Sequence record: MT150133.1
Reading direction: 5' to 3' (one strand)
DNA from: Enterobacteria phage vB_EcoM_IME540
Length of the DNA stretch: 64,000 nucleotides
Shown here: positions 3,400 to 55,005 of the stretch, piece by piece
Position numbering within the stretch: the first letter of the stretch is position 1
Layout of the letters: each line of letters starts with the position of its first letter
Notes under the pieces: generated by a model
The model's input: only the letters and a program-made list of their open reading frames with translations
Told to the model about the DNA's origin: nothing
The model's database searches: none
Program-made: the position numbers and the translations under genes

Positions 3400-4124
3400 T
3401 TAAATACAACTCCTCTATAAGAGCAATTAGGATAACCTTTGCTTATAGCTATCTTTTTAAACATATATGCTGAAGGCTTATTGGATTCTTCCCATAAGAG
3501 TTTTAATTCATCGTAAAATTTCCAAGATTCGTTTCTTATAGGAGAAGGTTTTCCTGCCATAGCGCCCTTTTTACCGTACATGGGATTCTTTTTGCCCTTT
3601 TTGGCGTTACTCATATTTTCTATGGTTTCAGCGCTATGTTTAAATCCTTTTAATTTTTTAGAGGCTAATCCTATTTTAGCTTTATGCTCATCACTAAATC
3701 CTATTCTATTGGAATAATGGTTTAAACCTTTATTAGAAGTGGTGAATTTAGAAGCTTCTATTCTGGCTTTGCTCCATTTAACTCCTTTTCTAGACCTAGA
3801 CATTTTCTGTTTAGTTAAATTAGATAATTTGGTTCCTTTCTTTTTACCTCTTCCGCCATCAGCAAAATTTAAAGAATGCTTACCATATTTTAATTTAGCC
3901 TTTTCAACTAAAGGAATTTCGGCGGCATACGCCTCTTCTTCAGATTCGAAGAATTCTAATATACGAGTTTTATAAGGATGCTTTTTACAAATATTTTTAA
4001 CTACCGTACCACTTCCATAATACCCGTCTGAAAGATTATCAGTGGAGTGTTTACCTACATAGTAATAATTTGCCTTATGGGTTTTTATTACAGTCAAGTA
4101 ATTATAATGGAATTCCTTTGCCAT
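3387..4124 (-). CDS. GIY-YIG-family homing endonuclease-like protein (seg-like)
   Basis: N-terminal YLTVIK...YYYVGKHST...GYYGSG (GIY-YIG variant); basic region with repeated K/G-rich NPMYGKKG (NUMOD3-like) motifs. Confidence 0.65.
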   Translation of the reverse strand: MAKEFHYNYLTVIKTHKANYYYVGKHSTDNLSDGYYGSGTVVKNICKKHPYKTRILEFFESEEEAYAAEIPLVEKAKLKYGKHSLNFADGGRGKKKGTKLSNLTKQKMSRSRKGVKWSKARIEASKFTTSNKGLNHYSNRIGFSDEHKAKIGLASKKLKGFKHSAETIENMSNAKKGKKNPMYGKKGAMAGKPSPIRNESWKFYDELKLLWEESNKPSAYMFKKIAISKGYPNCSYRGVVFKWQA

Positions 4125-4133
4125 ATTACCTTC

Positions 4134-4340
4134 TTAAAGCGTATTCACATAAGCTATTAATTCGTTTTCTTTCTCATCAAATCGATTGACAAATTCTTCC
4201 TGATGTTCGGGAGATAGCGGGCCATATTCATCATAAAAAGAATTTGCTTCTGCATGCTCATCTAGAAGTTCATGGATAAGCTCAAACAATTTATCTTTCT
4301 GTTCTTTACTCAGACTCATAACCATTGTACCTTTAAGCAA
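4134..4340 (-). CDS. hypothetical small protein (68 aa)
   Basis: ORF track. Confidence 0.4.
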   Translation of the reverse strand: MLKGTMVMSLSKEQKDKLFELIHELLDEHAEANSFYDEYGPLSPEHQEEFVNRFDEKENELIAYVNTL

Positions 4341-4528
4341 TATTCTTCTACATGCTGCTTACGTTTATTTTTATCTATAAAAGTATATTCAACATATTCA
4401 CCGATATACCATTTATCGGTGTTGTGTTGACTTTTTATAGGGCATTTAGTTACTCGGGTTTCGGACCAGTGTCGAATAATTTCCGCTTTATTTTTAGGGT
4501 CAAACGGATGCGGGTAATGGGCTTTCAT
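4316..4528 (-). CDS. hypothetical small protein (70 aa)
   Basis: ORF track; overlaps neighbours, start uncertain. Confidence 0.3.
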   Translation of the reverse strand: MKAHYPHPFDPKNKAEIIRHWSETRVTKCPIKSQHNTDKWYIGEYVEYTFIDKNKRKQHVEEYCLKVQWL

Positions 4529-4967
4529 AATCTACCACCACTAAATTAATATCAGGAGTAAACAAATTAATCAATTGGTAAACCTTGTCCCAATCACCAC
4601 CAGCAATACCACAACCGATGCGAGGAATATAAATTCTTGGTTTAAACAAAAGACCTTTTGCTTGTTGATTTAATTCTATCATACAGTTTACTAAAGCACC
4701 GTAATCAAGATTAGGGCCTGGTTCGTATTGGGTGTATAAATTATAGCAAATTTGGCCCTTATTACCTGTGGCTTGAGTAAACGTGCCAAGTTTTTCCAAA
4801 TGGCCTAAATAAGTGGTTTTATCGATAGCGAGAATAGGCGGATAAGCCTTAGCCAATTGCCCAGCTACACCTGAACCCATTGTGTGGAAACAGTTACACC
4901 CGTGTGCAACATTATTACCTTGAAGAAATAGGGCGACAATATCGCCCTTAATATAATCAATAATCAT
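4500..4967 (-). CDS. macro-domain-like protein (putative ADP-ribose binding/hydrolase)
   Basis: 155 aa; motifs GDIVALF...N...GSGVAGQ and C-terminal IPRIGCGIAGGDW resemble macro-domain glycine-rich loops; assignment from motif recognition only. Confidence 0.45.
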   Translation of the reverse strand: MIIDYIKGDIVALFLQGNNVAHGCNCFHTMGSGVAGQLAKAYPPILAIDKTTYLGHLEKLGTFTQATGNKGQICYNLYTQYEPGPNLDYGALVNCMIELNQQAKGLLFKPRIYIPRIGCGIAGGDWDKVYQLINLFTPDINLVVVDYESPLPASV

Positions 4968-5320
4968 TTAGAGTTTAATCCTCGATTGTATGAATCAACG
5001 AGTCTGTCTACCATAGACGCGCACATTTCTTTGTACTTTTTATCAGATGGAATACATTCAGTAACGTTTAGACGTTGCTCGTATCTTTTAGAAAGAGTTT
5101 TCTCTTTCATTCGACGATGCTCTACGTCGTTCTGCCCATCTTTAAAAGCAGCCGTGATTTTTGAACTGAATTCGATAATGCATTCAGTATTACTCGGATG
5201 ACAATAATCTTTTGCTGTACGGGTAGCATACTCGACAATTGAATTATTACTATCATAAACTTGTGACGCTAATACTCCCGGAGCAATCAACATAAGCGCT
5301 ATAGTCATCTGCTTAATCAT
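4964..5320 (-). CDS. putative secreted/periplasmic Cys-containing protein (118 aa)
   Basis: N-terminal signal-peptide-like MIKQMTIALMLIAPGVLASQ; four Cys in mature part. Confidence 0.45.
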   Translation of the reverse strand: MIKQMTIALMLIAPGVLASQVYDSNNSIVEYATRTAKDYCHPSNTECIIEFSSKITAAFKDGQNDVEHRRMKEKTLSKRYEQRLNVTECIPSDKKYKEMCASMVDRLVDSYNRGLNSK

Positions 5321-5884
5321 TTAATATACCGCCTCAAACATCTTTTTAGATTTTAGATAATTGGCCTTTTCTAGAACTTCAGAAGCATATTTACTGCCTG
5401 CTTCGACGTTCCAGCCCGCATTATAAGAAGCAATCGCTTTTCTCAGGTCACCTTTGTGAACATCAATCCAATAAGACAGTTCAATGTAGGCCCAAGAGGC
5501 ACTGTTCTGTCGTTTTTGGACCATACGAATTATTTCTTTGTCTGACATCTTCCAACCTACCTGTTGAACACGACTTCTTAACGTAGGCAAGTAATTTTGG
5601 AACATGCCATAAGCATGGTGCTTATCTTTATTTAAACCCTGATTAATTCCGGCAGATGATTCCTGCCATAGTAATCCGGCCATAATATATCCTAATCCTT
5701 TTTGATTAGGGGTTTCTTTGAACTTTCCCGACTTTTGGTATTGTTCACCGAAAGCATACGCATAATGTAAATTATCGAGCTGGGTTTCTGTAAATACGGG
5801 TTCTGCTGCACTTACAGAAAACGAACCACACATAATAGCCGCTATTAAAGAATATTTAAGTTTTTTTAGAAAAATCATAATCAA
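5321..5884 (-). CDS. putative secreted lytic transglycosylase (SLT-domain-like)
   Basis: Signal-peptide-like N-terminus; motifs LLWQESS ... AYGMFQ ... ASYNAGW match the E-S / GLMQ / AYNxG pattern of SLT domains. Confidence 0.5.
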   Translation of the reverse strand: MIMIFLKKLKYSLIAAIMCGSFSVSAAEPVFTETQLDNLHYAYAFGEQYQKSGKFKETPNQKGLGYIMAGLLWQESSAGINQGLNKDKHHAYGMFQNYLPTLRSRVQQVGWKMSDKEIIRMVQKRQNSASWAYIELSYWIDVHKGDLRKAIASYNAGWNVEAGSKYASEVLEKANYLKSKKMFEAVY

Positions 5885-6590
5885 TAAGTCCTCGGTAATC
5901 TACATTAGGGAAGCCGTTCTTAATTGCGATTTTACTAAATCTTCCACACTTGAGCTTATTATTATCTACCCATAATTTATATAATTGTGAATACATCGGT
6001 TCATGCCATATAGGGGATTTACGCAAAGAGGCTTTTTTCCTTTCTATAGTTTCTTTAGAATTTTGTATGGCTTTAAATTTTTGTCTATTTTCAGGATTTT
6101 CAAAATACTTAACCCGTTTTTCAGACATTTTAGCTTTTACTTTTGGCGAATTTAAAATTTCTTTGAGCCGTTCTTTAGAGCCTTCCTTTTCAAAATACTT
6201 TATTAAAGCCATTGAATGAGCAGCCCTATTTTCCTTTTTAGAGAAAAATAAAATTTTATTAATAGATTGCAATTTTGAAAATGATTCTTTAGCCAACTTA
6301 TAATTTTCAGAATCTACAAAATAAGACCTTTGTTTTGAATTTGAAGTAGAGCTCATATTTAACCAGGCAAAATTCAACCCATAGTGGTTTGGATTAGCTT
6401 TGGCTAGATACATATGGGCCAAATAATGTTCATCAGCATAAAGCTCAACTAAATTGTCTTGAGTGTCAGGACCACCAACACAACTCGGAATTATATGATG
6501 CTTTTCTGTATAGGCGTCATTAGGTGTATCCCTAGATAAGGCCGCATTTATTATTTTATAGTAGTCATATGGATATTTTATAGTTTCCAT
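5856..6590 (-). CDS. HNH-family homing endonuclease-like protein (mob-like)
   Basis: N-terminal EKHHIIPSCVGGPDTQDNLVELYADEH (HNH motif); basic C-terminal region; C-terminal KIAIKNGFPNVDYRG module shared with the ORF at 3387-4124. Confidence 0.65.
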   Translation of the reverse strand: METIKYPYDYYKIINAALSRDTPNDAYTEKHHIIPSCVGGPDTQDNLVELYADEHYLAHMYLAKANPNHYGLNFAWLNMSSTSNSKQRSYFVDSENYKLAKESFSKLQSINKILFFSKKENRAAHSMALIKYFEKEGSKERLKEILNSPKVKAKMSEKRVKYFENPENRQKFKAIQNSKETIERKKASLRKSPIWHEPMYSQLYKLWVDNNKLKCGRFSKIAIKNGFPNVDYRGLIDYDFSKKT

Positions 6591-6597
6591 ACTGTCC

Positions 6598-7056
6598 TCA
6601 CAAGTAAATTACTTTCGTGCTGGTTTTACCTTCTAAACGTTTAGAGTTAACAAATGCCATACGACATTTAAGGGAATATCCTTTATCAGGATGTTTACGG
6701 TCTACTGTCATACCTAGCCATAAGGTTTTATCGGTAATTTCGAGACGCAATGGCCGATACACTTTACCAGGGACAATTTCGGATTCTACATCAGGCAGAG
6801 GTTCCTGGATTAAGAATTCATGGATTTCTTTAACATGGTTATGGAGTTGCTTGAATAAAGCAAAAACGTATTTTTCGTCGATTTCACGTTGGATAGCACG
6901 GTCCAACAAGTGGTTAGAGTACTTAATAAAGAAGGCTGGGACTCCGCTCTTAATGGCGGCTTTTTTGATGGACGTATTCAGTTCACGGAATTCGGTTTCG
7001 AACTGACGACGTAATTTATTGCGGCGGATGAATACTTCTGAATTAATTTCTGACAT
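6598..7056 (-). CDS. regB: RegB-like endoribonuclease
   Basis: 152 aa; EVFIRRNKLRR...HLLDRAIQREIDE...LEITD..LWLG resemble T4 RegB as recalled; position between tk and denV as in T4. Confidence 0.6.
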   Translation of the reverse strand: MSEINSEVFIRRNKLRRQFETEFRELNTSIKKAAIKSGVPAFFIKYSNHLLDRAIQREIDEKYVFALFKQLHNHVKEIHEFLIQEPLPDVESEIVPGKVYRPLRLEITDKTLWLGMTVDRKHPDKGYSLKCRMAFVNSKRLEGKTSTKVIYL

Positions 7057-7073: not shown

Positions 7074-7113
7074 TTGATAGGTCTATAGTACCACGTCTAC
7101 AGGAGATGTAAAC
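7074..7113 (-). promoter_or_regulatory. early promoter cassette (PeSL-like) copy 2, upstream of regB
   Basis: Same core; flanked by inverted repeat CTCCTGTAG / CTACAGGAG. Confidence 0.6.
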
Positions 7114-7820: not shown

Positions 7821-8109
7821 ATTTTTTCCAATCAGAAATCATATGAATCTCTTGGTCATAAGTCAAGAGACTACGAGCAATAATACCCTTACAAGGCCCT
7901 GAGATGAACTCGAGAGTGAAGTAAGGAACCTGTTTCATTAATCGGATACTAGGAGCATGACATCTAAAACGAGAGCCCTTAAAGGGCCCTGTCATGAATA
8001 CATATTCCAATGGGTAGAAATAAGCATATTCGAAATTTGCAGTAAGGTCCTCTCTTCGAACCTTACGTGAGAAATAACAGAACTCAAAAAGTTCTTCATC
8101 AGTCATCAT
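7813..8109 (-). CDS. hypothetical protein (start at internal ATG overlapping upstream stop)
   Basis: ORF track 7813-8157; ATG ATG at 8109/8106 coupled to stop of 8106-8633. Confidence 0.4.
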   Translation of the reverse strand: MMTDEELFEFCYFSRKVRREDLTANFEYAYFYPLEYVFMTGPFKGSRFRCHAPSIRLMKQVPYFTLEFISGPCKGIIARSLLTYDQEIHMISDWKKYV

Positions 8110-8633
8110 TGCATTCCTATCACAAAGAACAGAGGCAAAGGCTTGTCGCCTTGGCACATAAATTTATTAATCATTACCTGGTAAGCTTCATAGAACTTAT
8201 CCATCGCTGGAAGGCGCATTGGCTCTTCGATAATAATCAATAATCGAGTAACAGATAGTCCACGATACTTATGGAAATTGTCTTCATCAAGGAAACTGCG
8301 CACAGTATCATAGACAACAAAACCAGGACCTTCGACTTGGAGATGTGGGTGTGCCTTAGAAACCTGTTTTATTACATTACAAATTTCTCGCGAGCGATGC
8401 GAAGAACTCGACATAACAATCACATCATTACCCTTGGAAACCCAATCAGCGGCGAACTGAGCAAGGGCACTTGTTTTACCTGTTTGGCGTCCGCCATCAA
8501 GTCGAAGAGTACCAAACTCTTGCATTCTTGAAGCAGGTTCATACCATGTGTATTGGTCTGAGTCTAAACGTTCAATGGCGCGTTCAGCGAAGGCGTGCAT
8601 TAAGGTTAGATAAATGGGAGTTAAAAATTTCAT
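8106..8633 (-). CDS. P-loop NTPase-like protein
   Basis: 175 aa; Walker A GGRQTGKTS and Walker-B-like LLIIIEEP. Confidence 0.5.
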   Translation of the reverse strand: MKFLTPIYLTLMHAFAERAIERLDSDQYTWYEPASRMQEFGTLRLDGGRQTGKTSALAQFAADWVSKGNDVIVMSSSSHRSREICNVIKQVSKAHPHLQVEGPGFVVYDTVRSFLDEDNFHKYRGLSVTRLLIIIEEPMRLPAMDKFYEAYQVMINKFMCQGDKPLPLFFVIGMQ

Positions 8634-8793: not shown

Positions 8794-9093
8794 TTAGAAA
8801 GAACCAGAACCTCTAATTGTGTTCTGGCGACCTTTATTTTCTAATTCGGAGTGGTCGATTTCATATGCTTGTGCTACGCCAAAGGCCTTTTTAACTTTAG
8901 CTAAAGAACCTTTAGATGTAACAATATTAAAAGTATTACCTTTGGTAAAATCAACAAAATCGACTTGTACGCCCTGTTTACCGAGGCTTGCTACAATAGC
9001 ATCAACATATTCTTGGTCTAAATTGCCTTGAACTCCAATTTGAAATGCTTTAGGAGCTTTGGCTTCTGTGATAAATTCTTGATAAGTTTTCAT
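8794..9093 (-). CDS. internal-protein-like (capsid-targeted) protein, ipII position
   Basis: N-terminus MKTYQEFITEAK matches the T4 IP capsid-targeting sequence MKTYQEFIAE; adjacent to denV as ipII is in T4. Confidence 0.6.
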   Translation of the reverse strand: MKTYQEFITEAKAPKAFQIGVQGNLDQEYVDAIVASLGKQGVQVDFVDFTKGNTFNIVTSKGSLAKVKKAFGVAQAYEIDHSELENKGRQNTIRGSGSF

Positions 9094-9136
9094 TGTTATT
9101 CCTTAAGTTGATAGAAGTATTCTATCACGGATTTAA

Positions 9137-9553
9137 TTAAGCGTAAATAGCCTTGCCATAATGTTTGTACCAGGTAGGACGCTGTGCAATTTTTTCATCC
9201 AAACGGGTCTGAGATATAGCAATAGAAGCTTCGTGTGGAGTATAGTCACCACGGAATTCCTGAGGAATGCCACTAATGTCCTGGACAGTAGTATCCTTGA
9301 TATTAAAACCACGTTTTAAACATTCGGCTATAAGCTCAATTTGTCGCTTACGTAAAAATTCAAGCTTATCGTAAAAGAATGTAACATGGCCTGTGCCAAG
9401 GATAAAAGTAGGACTGATTTTGAAATCACGGACACGTTTACCATTAGCAACATGCTTACGAACTGCACCGAAAACACGTGGTAATTCACGATATTCAGCC
9501 ATTAAGTGTTGGTCGGCCAATTCAGATACTAAGGTAAGGTTGATACGAGTCAT
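9137..9553 (-). CDS. denV: endonuclease V (pyrimidine dimer DNA glycosylase)
   Basis: 138 aa, near-identical to T4 DenV as recalled ([34 protein letters not shown]...). Confidence 0.93.
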
Positions 9554-9570
9554 TTTTTAATCTCCTGTAG

Positions 9571-9610
9571 TTGATAGGTCTATAGTATCATGCCTACAGG
9601 AGATGTAAAC
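9571..9610 (-). promoter_or_regulatory. early promoter cassette (PeSL-like) copy 3, upstream of denV
   Basis: Same core; flanked by inverted repeat CTCCTGTAG / CTACAGGAG. Confidence 0.6.
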
Positions 9611-10009
9611 TTATTTATAGGTTTTCATCCAATTCTTGAACAAAGCTGCGACGTCTTTCTCTTTAACGTTCAGTTTAACGTCCAACATTTTACCACCGGC
9701 AGCACGTGTCTGACGAATCTTAGCAGTACCGGTTTCGCCATTCCACTCAACATAATACTGTCCGGTGTTCATTGCAATACCGTCGCCGTAGTCTTCATTT
9801 TTAGAAGTGGTGAATGCCAGCTTCATAGTCTTAGATACACGAGCCTGCATGCCTGTCTGAAGGGCATTACGAACGCGAATAACCTGAGGAGTGGCCTGGG
9901 TCAGGTTTTCATTCAGTTCTTCAGTGAACTCTTCAGATTCAAACATCGCCAAAAGTTCTTTAGATGCAGGAATTACATTCTCTGCGATAAATTCATTATA
10001 AGTTTTCAT
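9611..10009 (-). CDS. internal-protein-like (capsid-targeted) protein, ipIII position
   Basis: N-terminus [11 protein letters not shown] (capsid-targeting-like); between denV and e. Confidence 0.6.
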
Positions 10010-10490
10010 ATGCTTTCCAAGTACCTGTTTTAAATGTGGAAATCACGCGCTTAGCACGATTAGGAGTTTGTTTATACCAACGGGATTGAGCCAGGTTAAC
10101 TGCTGCATCATCCCAACGTTTTTGCTGAAGCATACGCAGAGAGTTAGTGAACCCTGCTACGCCTGCTTCACCCATTTGGAAGACCATGTTAATTAAAGCA
10201 CAACGACGAACTTCGTCCAGTACATCATAAACAGGTTTCAATTTAGGATTACGCAGAATAGCTCTACGAGCATTTTCAACCGACCGGTTAAAGAGTTGTT
10301 CGGCTTCAGCCATAGTAATACGACCATTGCAAACTCGACCCATAAGCTTATCAAGTTCAGCCCGAGCAACATCTTTAGAAGGATTCTTAGTAATCAATTG
10401 GCCAATACCAATAGTATAGTATCCCTCAGTATCCTTATATAAGTCTAATTTACAGCCTTCATCAAGGCGTAACATATCAAAAATATCCAT
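9996..10490 (-). CDS. e: lysozyme (endolysin, T4 e)
   Basis: 164 aa; [12 protein letters not shown]...[15 protein letters not shown]... closely matches T4 lysozyme incl. catalytic Glu/Asp/Thr context. Confidence 0.95.
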
Positions 10491-10494
10491 AATA

Positions 10495-10520
10495 CCTCCT
10501 GAGTATAGGAGGTATTTATA
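10495..10520 (-). promoter_or_regulatory. lysozyme e late promoter plus SD-sequestering hairpin
   Basis: Minus strand TATAAATA (10513-10520) followed by CCTCC-TATACTC-AGGAGG hairpin (10495-10512) that pairs the e SD. Confidence 0.6.
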
Positions 10521-12731: not shown

Positions 12732-12771
12732 TTGATAGGTCTATAGTATCACACCTATAGACCTTGTACAC
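12732..12771 (-). promoter_or_regulatory. early promoter cassette (PeSL-like) copy 4
   Basis: Same core with GTGTACA -35 variant; inverted repeat AGGTCTATAG / CTATAGACCT. Confidence 0.55.
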
Positions 12772-18007: not shown

Positions 18008-18047
18008 TTGATAGGTCTATAGTATCATGTTTAAAGGAGGTGTAAAC
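18008..18047 (-). promoter_or_regulatory. early promoter cassette (PeSL-like) copy 5
   Basis: Same core; lies between terminator 18069-18099 and gene start 17983. Confidence 0.6.
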
Positions 18048-21208: not shown

Positions 21209-21481
21209 TTATTTTAAATAAATTGCATATTTTTTATAACCAGCCGTCTCGTGGCGCAGCCCTTTTTCATTAGCAAAACGTTCAATATTGTTAATTTGAT
21301 TCTGGTCGAGTTCTGAAGTATCAAATACAAAAAAGTTTCGCTTATTGCCTAAAGTTACGTGATTAGTCAAATCGATGTTATAGAGATGATTTATATTATC
21401 AATCATGGTCTTAACAGATTTGTTAATTTTTACTTCTTCATTAAGAATAGATTCAGCGATAAATTCTTGGTATGATTTCAT
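21209..21481 (-). CDS. internal-protein-like (capsid-targeted) protein
   Basis: N-terminus MKSYQEFIAES (capsid-targeting-like). Confidence 0.55.
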   Translation of the reverse strand: MKSYQEFIAESILNEEVKINKSVKTMIDNINHLYNIDLTNHVTLGNKRNFFVFDTSELDQNQINNIERFANEKGLRHETAGYKKYAIYLK

Positions 21482-21482
21482 T

Positions 21483-21707
21483 TTATTCAGCGCCAGCAGC
21501 TTTCAAAAGTTTTTTAAGATTGGCTATGCCGCCAGCAGAAAACGTGACCTTGCCACCTTTTTCATTGATAGAGCCAGTCAATTTAGCAAGCTTATCACTA
21601 GGGACTTTTTTAAAATCAGCCAGTGTGCCATCAAAGGTTTTTGTAACAATTGGCAGTTCATCTTCATGTCTTTTAGCTTCGGTGATAAATTCTTGATAAG
21701 TTTTCAT
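21483..21707 (-). CDS. internal-protein-like (capsid-targeted) protein, ipI position
   Basis: N-terminus MKTYQEFITEAK; located next to 57B as ipI in T4; promoter cassette upstream. Confidence 0.6.
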   Translation of the reverse strand: MKTYQEFITEAKRHEDELPIVTKTFDGTLADFKKVPSDKLAKLTGSINEKGGKVTFSAGGIANLKKLLKAAGAE

Positions 21708-21733: not shown

Positions 21734-21773
21734 TTGATAGGTCTATAGTATCATGCCTATAGACCTTGTAAAC
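21734..21773 (-). promoter_or_regulatory. early promoter cassette (PeSL-like) copy 7, upstream of ipI-like gene
   Basis: Same core; inverted repeat AGGTCTATAG / CTATAGACCT. Confidence 0.6.
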
Positions 21774-51276: not shown

Positions 51277-52851
51277 ATGGCAAACTTTAATACAATATTA
51301 AGTTTTCTTAAGCCATGGGCTAATGAAGACGAAAAAGAATATAAACAACAAATTAATAACAATTTAGAGTCTGTCACCGCACCTAAGCTTGATGATGGCG
51401 CTCGCGAAATTGAGACACAAGAGCAAAATATTCCTTATAATGCTCTTATGCAACAGATGTTTGGTAGTAATGAGCCTGAAGTTAAAAATACCAGGGAACT
51501 TATTGATACCTACCGTAATTTAATGAACAACTATGAAGTCGACAATGCCGTACAGGAAATTGTGTCTGACGCTATTGTCTATGAGGATGATAAAGAAGTA
51601 GTTGCATTGAATTTAGACGGGACAGAATTTAGTCAAGCAATTAAAGATAAAATCTTGGCCGAATTCAGTGAAGTTTTAAACCTTTTAAATTTCCAACGTA
51701 AAGGTACTGACCATTTCCAACGCTGGTATGTAGACTCAAGAATTTTCTTTCATAAAATTATAAACCCTAAAAAAATGAAAGATGGCGTACAAGAGCTTCG
51801 TCGCTTAGACCCACGCCAAGTCCAATATATTCGTGAAATCGTTACACGTATGGAAGATGGCGTTAAAGTTGTAGACGGATATCGCGAGTTTTTCGTTTAT
51901 GATACAGGCCATGAAAGTTATTGCGCTGATGGACGCATTTATTCAGCCGGGACTAAAGTTAAAATTCCTCGTGCTGCAGTGGTTTATGCTCATTCTGGAT
52001 TATTAGATTGTTGTGGTAAAAACATCATTGGCTATTTGCAACGTGCTATTAAGCCTGCAAACCAGCTTAAATTGATGGAAGACGCAATGGTCATCTACCG
52101 TATTACACGTGCTCCTGACCGTCGTGTGTTTTATATCGATACAGGTAATATGCCTTCACGTAAGGCTGCAGCACAAATGCAACATATCATGAACACGATG
52201 AAAAACCGTGTGGTGTATGATGCTTCGACAGGTAAAATTAAAAACCAACAACACAATATGTCCATGACTGAAGACTATTGGTTGCAACGTCGTGATGGTA
52301 AAGCGGTAACAGAAGTTGATACAATGCCAGGTGCTACTGGTATGAGTGATATGGATGACGTTCTTTATTTCCGCACAGCACTTTACCGTGCGTTGCGTGT
52401 TCCTGAATCACGTATCCCTAGCGAGTCTAATTCTGGTGTTATGTTTGATGCCGGTACAGCAATCACTCGTGACGAATTAAAATTCTCTAAATGGATTCGT
52501 CAACTACAAAACAAATTTGAAGAAATTTTCCTAGACCCGTTAAAAACAAACCTCATTCTTAAAAAGATTATTACAGAAGATGAGTGGGAAAAGGAAATAA
52601 ATAATATTAAAGTTACGTTTAACCGTGATAGCTATTTCAGTGAAATGAAAGATGCTGAAATCATGGAACGCAGAATCAATATGCTAACGATGGCTGAACC
52701 ATTTATTGGTAAGTATATTTCACATCAAACGGCTATGAAAGATTTCCTCCAAATGACCGACGAAGAAATTAATCAAGAAGCTAAGCAAATTGAAGAAGAG
52801 TCTAAAGAGGCTCGTTTCCAAAACCCAGATGAAGAAGAAGAGGATTTCTAA
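51277..52851 (+). CDS. 20: portal protein gp20
   Basis: 524 aa (same as T4 gp20); synteny. Confidence 0.92.
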
Positions 52852-53096
52852 TGGAAGATTTAATCGAAGCTATTAAATCAAACGACCTCGTAGCAGTTCG
52901 TAAAGCAGCAGCCCCGCTTATCGAATCTCGAGTAACCGCTTTGATTGAAGCCCGTAAAGCAGAAATTGCTCGCTCCGTTATGATTGAAGGCGAAGAAGCT
53001 GACGAAGATGACGAAGACGACGAAAAATCCGATAAAGCAGATAAGAAAGACAAAAAAGAATCTGACGATGCGGATGATGACGAGGACGACGAATAA
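52851..53096 (+). CDS. 67: prohead core protein gp67
   Basis: 81 aa; highly acidic C-terminus (DEDDEDDE...). Confidence 0.85.
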
Positions 53097-53524
53097 TGTT
53101 CCTTATCCCTGATGATTACGAATTAACTCTAGAAAGCGTAGAGGCCAAAATTCCAGAAGCACAGGGACGTTTTGCTGCTCTTTCTGAAGCGCTCGAGAAA
53201 AGCGATATAAATAATCTTGTAGAGAACATGATTGCTGAAGGCGATATCGAATGTGCTATCGCTCTTGGTTCTTTAAATGAATCAATGGCTCTTAACGAAT
53301 TTATAGTTAAACACGTTTCCTCTAAAGGTGAGCTTACTCGTACTAAAGATATTAAAACCCGTCAACGTAATGCGTTCCAAACGACAGGTTTATCTAAAGC
53401 AAAACGCCGTCAGATTGCTCGTAAAGCATCTAAAACCAAACGTGCTAATCCGTCTACTCAAGTACGTGCCGAACGTAAGCGTAAGAAAGCCCGTTCTAAA
53501 CGTAAAGCTTTTGGACTCAACTAA
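53096..53524 (+). CDS. 68: prohead core protein gp68
   Basis: 142 aa; basic C-terminus; synteny. Confidence 0.85.
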
Positions 53525-54159
53525 TGAAACCTGAATTGCTCATCGAACATTGGGGACAACCAGGTGAAATTATCGATGGGGTTCCTATGTTGGAATCTCA
53601 TGATGGAAAAAATTCTGGGCTTGCTCCCGGCCTTTATATAGAAGGCATTTTCATGCAAGCAGAGGTAGTTAACCGTAATAAACGCCTTTACCCAAAACCT
53701 ATTTTGGAAAAAGCCGTTGCCGATTATATGGCAGAACAGGTTGCTACTAAACAAGCTTTAGGAGAATTAAACCACCCACCTCGTGCTAACGTTGACCCTA
53801 TGCAAGCTGCTATCATTATTGAAGATATGTGGTGGAAAGGTAATGATGTTTATGGACGTGCACGTATCATCGAAGGTGACCATGGCCCTGGTGATAAACT
53901 AGCTGCAAATATCCGAGCTGGCTGGGTTCCTGGTGTTAGTTCTCGCGGTCTTGGTTCTTTAACTGAAACCAATAAAGGATATAAGCGTGTAAACGAAGGT
54001 TATAAATTAACCGTCGGTGTTGATGCAGTATGGGGACCATCTGCTCCTGATGCTTATGTAACTCCGAAGCAAATTACAGAATCACAAACGGTAGAAACCG
54101 ATACCAGTGCCGATGACGCCTTTATGGCTCTCGCAGAGGCCATGAAAAAAGCGTTATAA
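53524..54159 (+). CDS. 21: prohead core protease gp21
   Basis: 211 aa; synteny. Confidence 0.88.
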   Translation: MKPELLIEHWGQPGEIIDGVPMLESHDGKNSGLAPGLYIEGIFMQAEVVNRNKRLYPKPILEKAVADYMAEQVATKQALGELNHPPRANVDPMQAAIIIEDMWWKGNDVYGRARIIEGDHGPGDKLAANIRAGWVPGVSSRGLGSLTETNKGYKRVNEGYKLTVGVDAVWGPSAPDAYVTPKQITESQTVETDTSADDAFMALAEAMKKAL

Positions 54160-54189: not shown

Positions 54190-55005
54190 ATGCTTAAAGA
54201 ACAACTGATCGCCGAAGCACAGAATATTGATGCTTCCGTTGCTCTTGACAGTATTTTCGAATCAGTTAATATTTCTCCGGAAGCAAAAGAAACTTTCGGC
54301 ACTGTATTCGAAGCTACCGTCAAGCAACACGCCGTGAAACTGGCTGAATCTCACATCGCTAAAATCGCTGAAAAAGCGGAAGAAGAAGTCGAGAAAAATA
54401 AAGAAGAAGCTGAAGAAAAAGCCGATAAGAAAATCCAAGAAGCTGCCGGTCGTTTCCTTGACCACGTTGCTAAAGAATGGATGGCTGAAAACCAGCTGGC
54501 TGTTGATAAAGGTATTAAAGCCGAACTGTTCGAATCCATGTTGATGGGTATGAAAGAACTGTTTGTTGAACACAATGTGGTTGTTCCAGAAGAAGCAGTA
54601 GATGTTGTTGCTGAAATGGAAGAAGAACTCCAAGAGCAGAAAGATGAAACCGCTCGTCTGTTCGAAGAAGTTGGTAAGCGCGACGCGTATATTAATTACG
54701 TACAGCGTGAAGTTGCTGTTACGGAAGCAACTAAAGACCTGACTGAATCCCAAAAAGAAAAAGTTAGTTCTCTGGTAGAAGGCATGGATTATTCCGATGC
54801 ATTCGGTAAAAAAATTGGCGCTATTGTTGAAATGGTTAAAGGTCAATCTGACGTTGAAAACCCAATCACCGAAGCCGCTATAAATAAAAATGTAGACGAT
54901 GCTGCGGCACTGAATTACATTTCAGAAGCAGTTGAAGAAAAAGGCGCTAAGCCTACCCTGTCCTTCGCGGACCTGTCTGCAATCGCAGCATCACGAATTT
55001 CTTAA
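54190..55005 (+). CDS. 22: prohead core scaffold protein gp22
   Basis: 271 aa, Glu/Lys-rich helical; TATAAATA at 54155-54162 upstream. Confidence 0.88.
   Translation: MLKEQLIAEAQNIDASVALDSIFESVNISPEAKETFGTVFEATVKQHAVKLAESHIAKIAEKAEEEVEKNKEEAEEKADKKIQEAAGRFLDHVAKEWMAENQLAVDKGIKAELFESMLMGMKELFVEHNVVVPEEAVDVVAEMEEELQEQKDETARLFEEVGKRDAYINYVQREVAVTEATKDLTESQKEKVSSLVEGMDYSDAFGKKIGAIVEMVKGQSDVENPITEAAINKNVDDAAALNYISEAVEEKGAKPTLSFADLSAIAASRIS
54889..54896 (+). promoter_or_regulatory. late promoter (TATAAATA) for gene 23, inside 3' end of gene 22
   Basis: Exact TATAAATA ~130 nt upstream of gene 23 ATG. Confidence 0.5.

Follow-up and report, generated by a model that had tools for sequence, protein, structure and literature searches.

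Capsid-targeting leaders on two genes flanking denV in the Dhakavirus phage vB_EcoM_IME540 mark an Ip7-family protein and a probable, unannotated family of internal head proteins

We analysed a 64,000-nucleotide stretch of the genome of Enterobacteria phage vB_EcoM_IME540 (MT150133.1; hereafter the window), in which two short open reading frames (ORFs) encoding proteins of 99 and 132 amino acids (aa) lie on either side of the endonuclease V gene denV. Both proteins begin with a close copy of the capsid-targeting sequence (CTS) of phage T4 and, by analogy with T4, are very probably internal proteins that are packaged in the phage head and processed. The 99-aa gene, a member of the Ip7 family, has precedents: RefSeq records of sibling phages already call it 'internal head protein'. 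What is new here is that phrog_15461, the family of the 132-aa protein, carries a conserved CTS, which makes it an unannotated family of probable internal proteins, possibly with a propeptide removed in two steps. Such genes were already known as a class, as were their hypervariability and their potential against host defences, and the finding is not conceptually new. A preliminary description of this DNA had placed two CTS-bearing ORFs around denV; we recovered exactly these ORFs, and Pfam and PHROG searches identified denV between them (Table 1).

The T4 internal proteins IPII and IPIII both begin MKTYQEFIAE, and each of the two leaders matches this sequence at 9 of 10 positions; the only changes are A9T in the 99-aa protein and Q5N in the 132-aa protein. 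Residues 4 and 7 of the T4 leader are the most important for targeting and residues 8 and 10 for processing, and the prohead protease gp21 cleaves after the motif L/I-x-E (PMC9026906). Y4, F7, I8 and E10 are retained in both proteins, and the gp21 motif falls at leader positions 8-10 (ITE↓A in the 99-aa protein and IAE↓N in the 132-aa protein), in agreement with the earlier reading of these leaders as copies of the T4 CTS. For packaging, the 10 N-terminal residues of IPIII are enough (PMC9026906), and in T4 the first 10 residues alone have been reported to be enough to package foreign proteins. A degenerate DNA pattern for M-K-(T/S)-Y-x-E-F-I-x-E matched four sites in the 64 kb and none in 100 dinucleotide-preserving shuffles. 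All four sites are ORF start codons, two of them flanking denV and the other two at the ipI locus.

Within each family, the leader is 80-100% identical to the window copy, and identity in the remainder is as low as 41-44%. The leader codons vary synonymously among the copies of JS10, a Klebsiella phage, Serratia phage 4S, Erwinia phage Cronus, T2 and RB69, and the peptide pattern M-K-(T/S)-(Y/F)-x-(E/Q)-F-(I/L)-x-E is kept across those copies. The constancy of the leader peptide despite synonymous codon changes points to constraint on the peptide and not on the DNA alone. The more distant family members carry L-A-E, L-D-E or I-N-E at the leader cleavage motif. Intact ORFs of similar length occur across several genera (283 phage records for the Ip7 family and 49 for phrog_15461), and each protein has a dedicated PHROG family, so that the idea of one or both being chance ORFs that are not expressed hardly merits consideration.

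The phage is JS98-like, a T-even phage in the genus Dhakavirus. Phage QL01 shares 97% identity with the region around denV and 99.9% with the ipI-locus region, and at the denV region the window is collinear with IME281 and EcWhh-1. The order on the minus strand is e, the 132-aa ORF, denV, the 99-aa ORF and a vs.8-like gene. A comparison of gene order in the window, IME281, QL01, JS10 and T4 placed both CTS genes between e and vs.8, in the classical ipII/ipIII slot. In T4 the order is e-ipIII-ipII-denV, with both internal-protein genes upstream of denV, whereas one of the two lies downstream in the window.

Over residues 1-99, the 99-aa protein is matched by phrog_2667 ('internal head protein'; 7.1e-43). 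It is 74% identical to the copies in Klebsiella phages and 47-52% identical to the Ip7/internal head proteins of CC31, T2, RB69 and mogra, which are full-length homologues; some of the phage records matched are annotated ip7 or internal head protein. In a Foldseek search of BFVD with a model of the 99-aa protein, the only significant match was 'Ip7 protein MX01' (4.7e-11). Cleavage after E10 would leave a predicted mature product of 89 aa (9.5 kDa, pI 9.0, net charge +2). The Ip7 genes of T2 and RB69 are located at the ipI locus beside 57B, whereas the Ip7 gene of the window is located next to denV. A reported function was not found in the literature for any Ip7.

The 132-aa protein matches phrog_15461, to which no function is assigned, over its whole length (residues 1-132; 1e-91), and 40 of the 40 family records listed are named 'hypothetical protein'. 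The phages that carry the family are all T4-like, namely Dhakavirus phages, Marfa-like Klebsiella phages, Serratia phage 4S and Erwinia phages Cronus and IT22. The family formed 17 clusters at 90% identity among 5.8 billion proteins and had five convincing representatives among 1.84 billion proteins, four of them full length and one a 35-aa N-terminal fragment. Its gene is directly downstream of e in every genome inspected, and is followed by denV in the Dhakavirus phages, 4S and Cronus and by the Ip7 gene in the Marfa-like phage. The predicted mature product after a cut at E10 has 122 aa (13.7 kDa, pI 8.8, net charge +2). The protein consists of an acidic segment (residues 11-40, net charge -6) and a basic, conserved body (residues 41-132, net charge +8).

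In an alignment of 11 family sequences, L32, E34 and N35 do not vary, not even in members that lack residues 11-29, and N33 is present in at least 90%. At this L-N-E-N site, Serratia phage 4S has I-N-E-N and Erwinia phage Cronus is without the motif. LNE34↓N is a possible second gp21 site, which would split an acidic pro-segment from the basic body and leave a product of approximately 11 kDa, although L/I-x-E is common by chance. In a more far-reaching version of this proposal, the CTS (residues 1-10) would be removed first and the pro-segment would then be cut off at L-N-E34↓N, having masked the basic, beta-rich effector domain until it was inside the prohead. The phrog_15461 family would then be a new class of injected anti-defence protein with a two-step propeptide, a masked effector and a defence target novel for internal proteins, which we regard as improbable.

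The representative search also returned P0040, a 194-aa protein with a diverged leader (MKSFDQYIME↓S), an unrelated N-terminal domain of approximately 80 aa, the motif L-T-E↓S and then the conserved body of the 132-aa family. Such a motif directly before that body is in keeping with a possible second gp21 site at L-N-E34↓N. This architecture raises the possibility that P0040 is a polyprotein that the prohead protease cuts into two cargos; if the two-step proposal were true, it would deliver two effectors from one CTS.

Several other resemblances of the 132-aa protein were considered and set aside. Its profile (residues 30-101; window positions 9611-9920) gave a borderline match (E 0.013-0.024) to the outer domain of Salmonella flagellin, at chain residues 224-296 of 1io1 and 276-348 of 1ucu, when compared with PDB sequences. 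An exhaustive representative search gave matches at E of approximately 1e-5 to repeats of two large multi-repeat proteins, which were treated as non-homologous. Both sets of matches probably stem from the composition of a T/N/G-rich beta segment, or from likeness at the level of hairpins, and not from homology. The C-terminus of the protein (WMKTYK and stop; 9611-9628, minus strand) repeats the 'MKTY' of its own leader. We did not retain a remnant CTS as the explanation; the sequence varies in relatives (THK, VHK, IYK) and is more simply read as T-Y-K-stop spelling TATAAATA.

Beyond their leaders, the two proteins have different bodies, as the preliminary description had supposed. BLASTP of the 99-aa protein against the 132-aa protein gave an alignment limited to residues 1-19, and a profile-profile comparison of the Ip7 and phrog_15461 families aligned columns 1-44, with nothing convincing past the shared leader. 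Alignment to T4 IPI, IPII and IPIII also matched the leaders only, the bodies of both proteins being unrelated to the T4 proteins, and hhalign of either family against IPI aligned the leader only. We then removed the leaders from 10 proteins (the four CTS proteins of the window, T4 IPI, IPII and IPIII, QL01 IPIII, Bas37_0260 and Bas37_0261) and compared the bodies all against all by BLASTP; the sole match was between T4 IPIII and QL01 IPIII, and every other pair had E > 0.08. Membership of Bas37_0260 in the Ip7 or phrog_15461 family was rejected (best body E 0.087 over 22 residues). Searches of the Pfam and NCBIfam libraries gave nothing above the cut-offs. When the characterised internal proteins were compared by tblastn with the whole window, the matches were the four leaders only. 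Because both classical internal-protein loci lie within the 64 kb, the window is without a homologue of IPI, IPII or IPIII.

With T4 IPII and IPIII, the window proteins share a near-identical leader, the same predicted I-x-E site, the e...denV...vs.8 neighbourhood and a small, basic product, but their bodies have no similarity. The mechanism proposed below is modelled on IPI, which is made with an N-terminal propeptide, enters the head, is cut by gp21 and is injected; however, its propeptide is 19 residues long (MKTFKEFTSTTTPVSTITE) and its body is unrelated by both BLASTP and hhalign. Bas37_0260 of phage KarlGJung is likewise small, begins with MKTYQEFIAE, is encoded at an internal-protein locus and has a body unlike those of the T4 internal proteins, but this body is unrelated to that of the 99-aa or the 132-aa protein.

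The genome that carries these CTS genes also encodes gp21, the expected leader-removing enzyme, together with the core proteins gp22, gp67 and gp68 (Table 1). The scaffolding core protein gp22 is the reported partner of internal proteins within the prohead core. On the T4 model, the leader would dock the 99-aa and 132-aa proteins onto the prohead scaffolding core, and cleavage by gp21 after Glu10 would release the small basic products of 9.5 and 13.7 kDa. The mature proteins would stay with the packaged DNA in the head and would then be injected alongside it.

The other two leader-pattern sites are the starts of ORFs of 74 and 90 aa that lie back to back beside 57B/57A and were absent from the preliminary description. 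The window thus has four internal-protein candidates, none of which (0 of 4) is homologous to T4 IPI, IPII or IPIII or to Bas37_0260. The 90-aa protein belongs to the Ip9 family, and homologues of its body (residues ~17-90) occur without a CTS as a stand-alone 72-aa siphovirus protein (Kagunavirus JSSK01, 51% identity) and at the C-terminus of a large Ackermannviridae protein, where the body forms a domain (Agtrevirus ChubbyThor gp130, 34%). This distribution suggests that a CTS was grafted onto an Ip9 domain circulating among unrelated phages.

The ATG of the 132-aa gene overlaps the stop codon of e by 14 nt; the two genes are therefore probably co-transcribed and may be translationally coupled. 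The sequence TATAAATA is the T4 late-promoter consensus, and a copy upstream of e hints, weakly, at a single late transcript for e and the 132-aa gene. The final codons of the 132-aa gene contain a second copy, which thus precedes denV and the 99-aa gene; JS10 has a different sequence there (TACAAATA), so this copy may be due to chance. In the interval from the 132-aa gene to denV, we found an early-type promoter (TTTACA-16-TACTAT with a TG extension; 9582-9609) nested in a 16-nt inverted repeat (arms 9555-9570 and 9594-9609). This element resembles the PeSL promoter/stem-loop cassettes that have been proposed to drive modular shuffling in T4-like phages, and it fits their PST/T4 promoter consensus, TTTACW..N17..TAYWAT (PMC4122927). 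Early-type promoter-like sites in this region are no more numerous than expected by chance. The 26-bp core of the promoter upstream of denV (TAGGCATGATACTATAGACCTATCAA) occurs in five copies with 3 or fewer mismatches in the window, where none is expected, and the copy that precedes the 74-aa CTS gene is identical to the one at denV.

The PeSL papers note that internal proteins differ between close relatives. QL01 has an additional ipIII cassette behind the 132-aa gene and JS10 has one ahead of that gene; the window has none, as seen in the segments compared (window ~9555-9620; QL01 4000-4760 and JS10 4246-4970). The cassette opens with its own GTTTACATCTCCT promoter segment in both phages, and in QL01 a second GTTTACATCTCCT copy follows it, placing direct repeats at both ends. 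This pattern is consistent with PeSL-mediated insertion or deletion of the cassette.

Such shuffling bears on an alternative in which the leaders are hitch-hikers of recombination. In that case, the CTS DNA and the promoter repeats would serve as crossover sites, and the proteins would be packaged poorly and would act after de novo synthesis. The exchange of cassettes at repeated promoter sequences, the early-type promoter-like site at the 99-aa gene and the existence of Ip9 bodies without a CTS are all in keeping with this alternative. However, the leader peptide is near constant despite synonymous codons and 56-59% divergence of the bodies, and the 10-residue T4 leader is reported to suffice for the packaging of foreign proteins; we consider the hitch-hiker alternative very unlikely.

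For what the packaged proteins might do in the cell, the characterised internal proteins are the guide. IPI inhibits the GmrS/GmrD type IV restriction enzyme, in line with the statement of the preliminary description that the T4 internal proteins include an inhibitor of host restriction. IPII inhibits fused GmrSD, IPIII is required on ECOR17 and is active without its CTS when supplied in trans, and Bas37_0260 inhibits McrBC (2025 HIDEN-SEQ preprint). Every CTS protein with a reported function counters host defence or restriction, and the suggestion of the preliminary description that divergent bodies are candidate injected anti-defence effectors agrees with these reports. By analogy, each of the two proteins would block a first-line host defence, likely a modification-dependent (type IV-like) nuclease, and, since their bodies are unrelated to those of IPI, IPII and Bas37_0260, other targets than theirs would be expected. 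In our estimate, the chances that the proteins are anti-defence effectors are evenly balanced. Packaging and anti-defence function taken as one reading, at a strength that is a compromise between its two parts, appear likely.

Alternatively, the proteins may be packaged and processed and yet have a structural or physico-chemical role, neutralising DNA charge or assisting core assembly, with no specific host target. The T4 internal proteins are basic, are present at approximately 300 copies each and touch DNA phosphates, and both mature proteins of the window are also basic. In IPIII mutants, heads assemble more slowly, polyheads are more frequent and the burst is smaller (PMC9026906), and the window has no IPIII homologue, so another internal protein might take that role. 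On the other side, the net charge of the window proteins is just +2 each (as for IPI*; +5 for IPII and +10 for IPIII), and the T4 internal protein genes are dispensable on standard laboratory strains (PMC9026906). The wholesale replacement of bodies between close phage relatives suits arms-race cargo better, as does the restriction- or defence-related function of all internal proteins whose function has been reported. A purely structural role is accordingly unlikely in our view, although it is the main rival.

A number of observations nevertheless weigh against packaged anti-defence effectors. The phenotype of the IPIII mutants means that an internal protein is not necessarily an anti-defence protein, the charge of the window proteins is below that of IPII and IPIII, and the acidic N-terminal stretch of the 132-aa protein is unlike the T4 internal proteins. 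Structure prediction gave little help: the model of the 99-aa protein has a generic ferredoxin-like fold that offers no functional clue, and AlphaFold2 on the 11 sequences of the 132-aa family gave an unreliable model (mean pLDDT 50.9) that was not used for a fold search. The motif TATAAATA occurs six times on this strand in the 64 kb, which by a rough, uncomputed estimate is about the chance level for AT-rich sequence. The 99-aa gene may undergo some early synthesis, given the early-type promoter-like site directly upstream of it. In the literature searched, we found no virion proteomics, N-terminal sequencing or genetics for the Ip7 or phrog_15461 families, and no virion proteomics for Dhakavirus or the Marfa, Cronus and 4S phages.

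Table 1. Positions of the CTS genes, their neighbours, head genes and expression signals in the 64,000-nt window
Feature	Position	Strand	Basis
99-aa ORF (Ip7-family internal protein gene)	8794-9093	minus	ORF list; N-terminus MKTYQEFITEAK
99-aa leader codons (MKTYQEFITE)	9064-9093	minus	ORF translation
132-aa ORF (CTS-bearing, phrog_15461)	9611-10009	minus	ORF list
132-aa leader codons	9980-10009	minus	ORF translation
L32-N33-E34 codons (possible second gp21 site, L-x-E↓N)	9908-9916	minus	family alignment, inferred
denV (endonuclease V, pyrimidine-dimer glycosylase)	9137-9553	minus	Pfam PF03013 Pyr_excise 1.3e-14; phrog_1183 2.3e-62
e (T4-type lysozyme)	9996-10490	minus	Pfam Phage_lysozyme 9.4e-12; annotated e in JS10, QL01
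vs.8-like gene	8106-8633	minus	ORF list and family searches
Third CTS gene (74 aa, MKTYQEFITE↓AK), next to 57B	21483-21707	minus	ORF and leader scan
Fourth CTS gene (90 aa, MKSYQEFIAE↓S), Ip9 family	21209-21481	minus	ORF and leader scan
gp20 portal	51286-52848		tblastn, 75.7% identity to T4
gp67	52851-52985		tblastn, 55.6% identity to T4
gp68	53096-53452		tblastn, 71.4% identity to T4
gp21 prohead protease (expected leader-removing enzyme)	53521-54156	plus	tblastn, 88% identity to T4
gp22 scaffolding core protein, N-terminal part	54190-54573	plus	tblastn, 90.6% identity to T4
TATAAATA motif upstream of e	10513-10520	minus	motif scan
Second TATAAATA motif, in last codons (T-Y-K-stop) of the 132-aa gene	9612-9619	minus	motif scan
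PeSL-like element between the 132-aa gene and denV	9555-9609	minus	promoter scan and inverted repeat
Early-type promoter-like site (TTTACG-17-TAGAAT, TG extension), across the stop codon of denV, immediately before the 99-aa gene	9119-9147	minus	consensus match
Copies of the 26-bp core	7074-7099, 9571-9596, 12732-12757, 18008-18033, 21734-21759	minus

Elsewhere in the window, a 244-aa ORF (5856-6590, minus strand), read from the ORF list only, contains an HNH-like motif (EKHHIIPSCVGGPDTQDNLVELYADEHYLAH) and is probably a homing endonuclease. It lies just past ORF 6598-7056, the ORF to which the QL01 match aligns at its regB end.

Internal proteins enter the cell with the DNA, before phage gene expression, and this timing suits the disarming of nucleases that would destroy the entering DNA. 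A role in host range or against restriction has been reported for four internal proteins (IPI, IPII, IPIII and Bas37_0260), and the window adds four uncharacterised CTS cargos from a single phage. These cargos are cheap and well-defined candidates for anti-defence screens and for work on the host range of therapeutic Dhakavirus phages.

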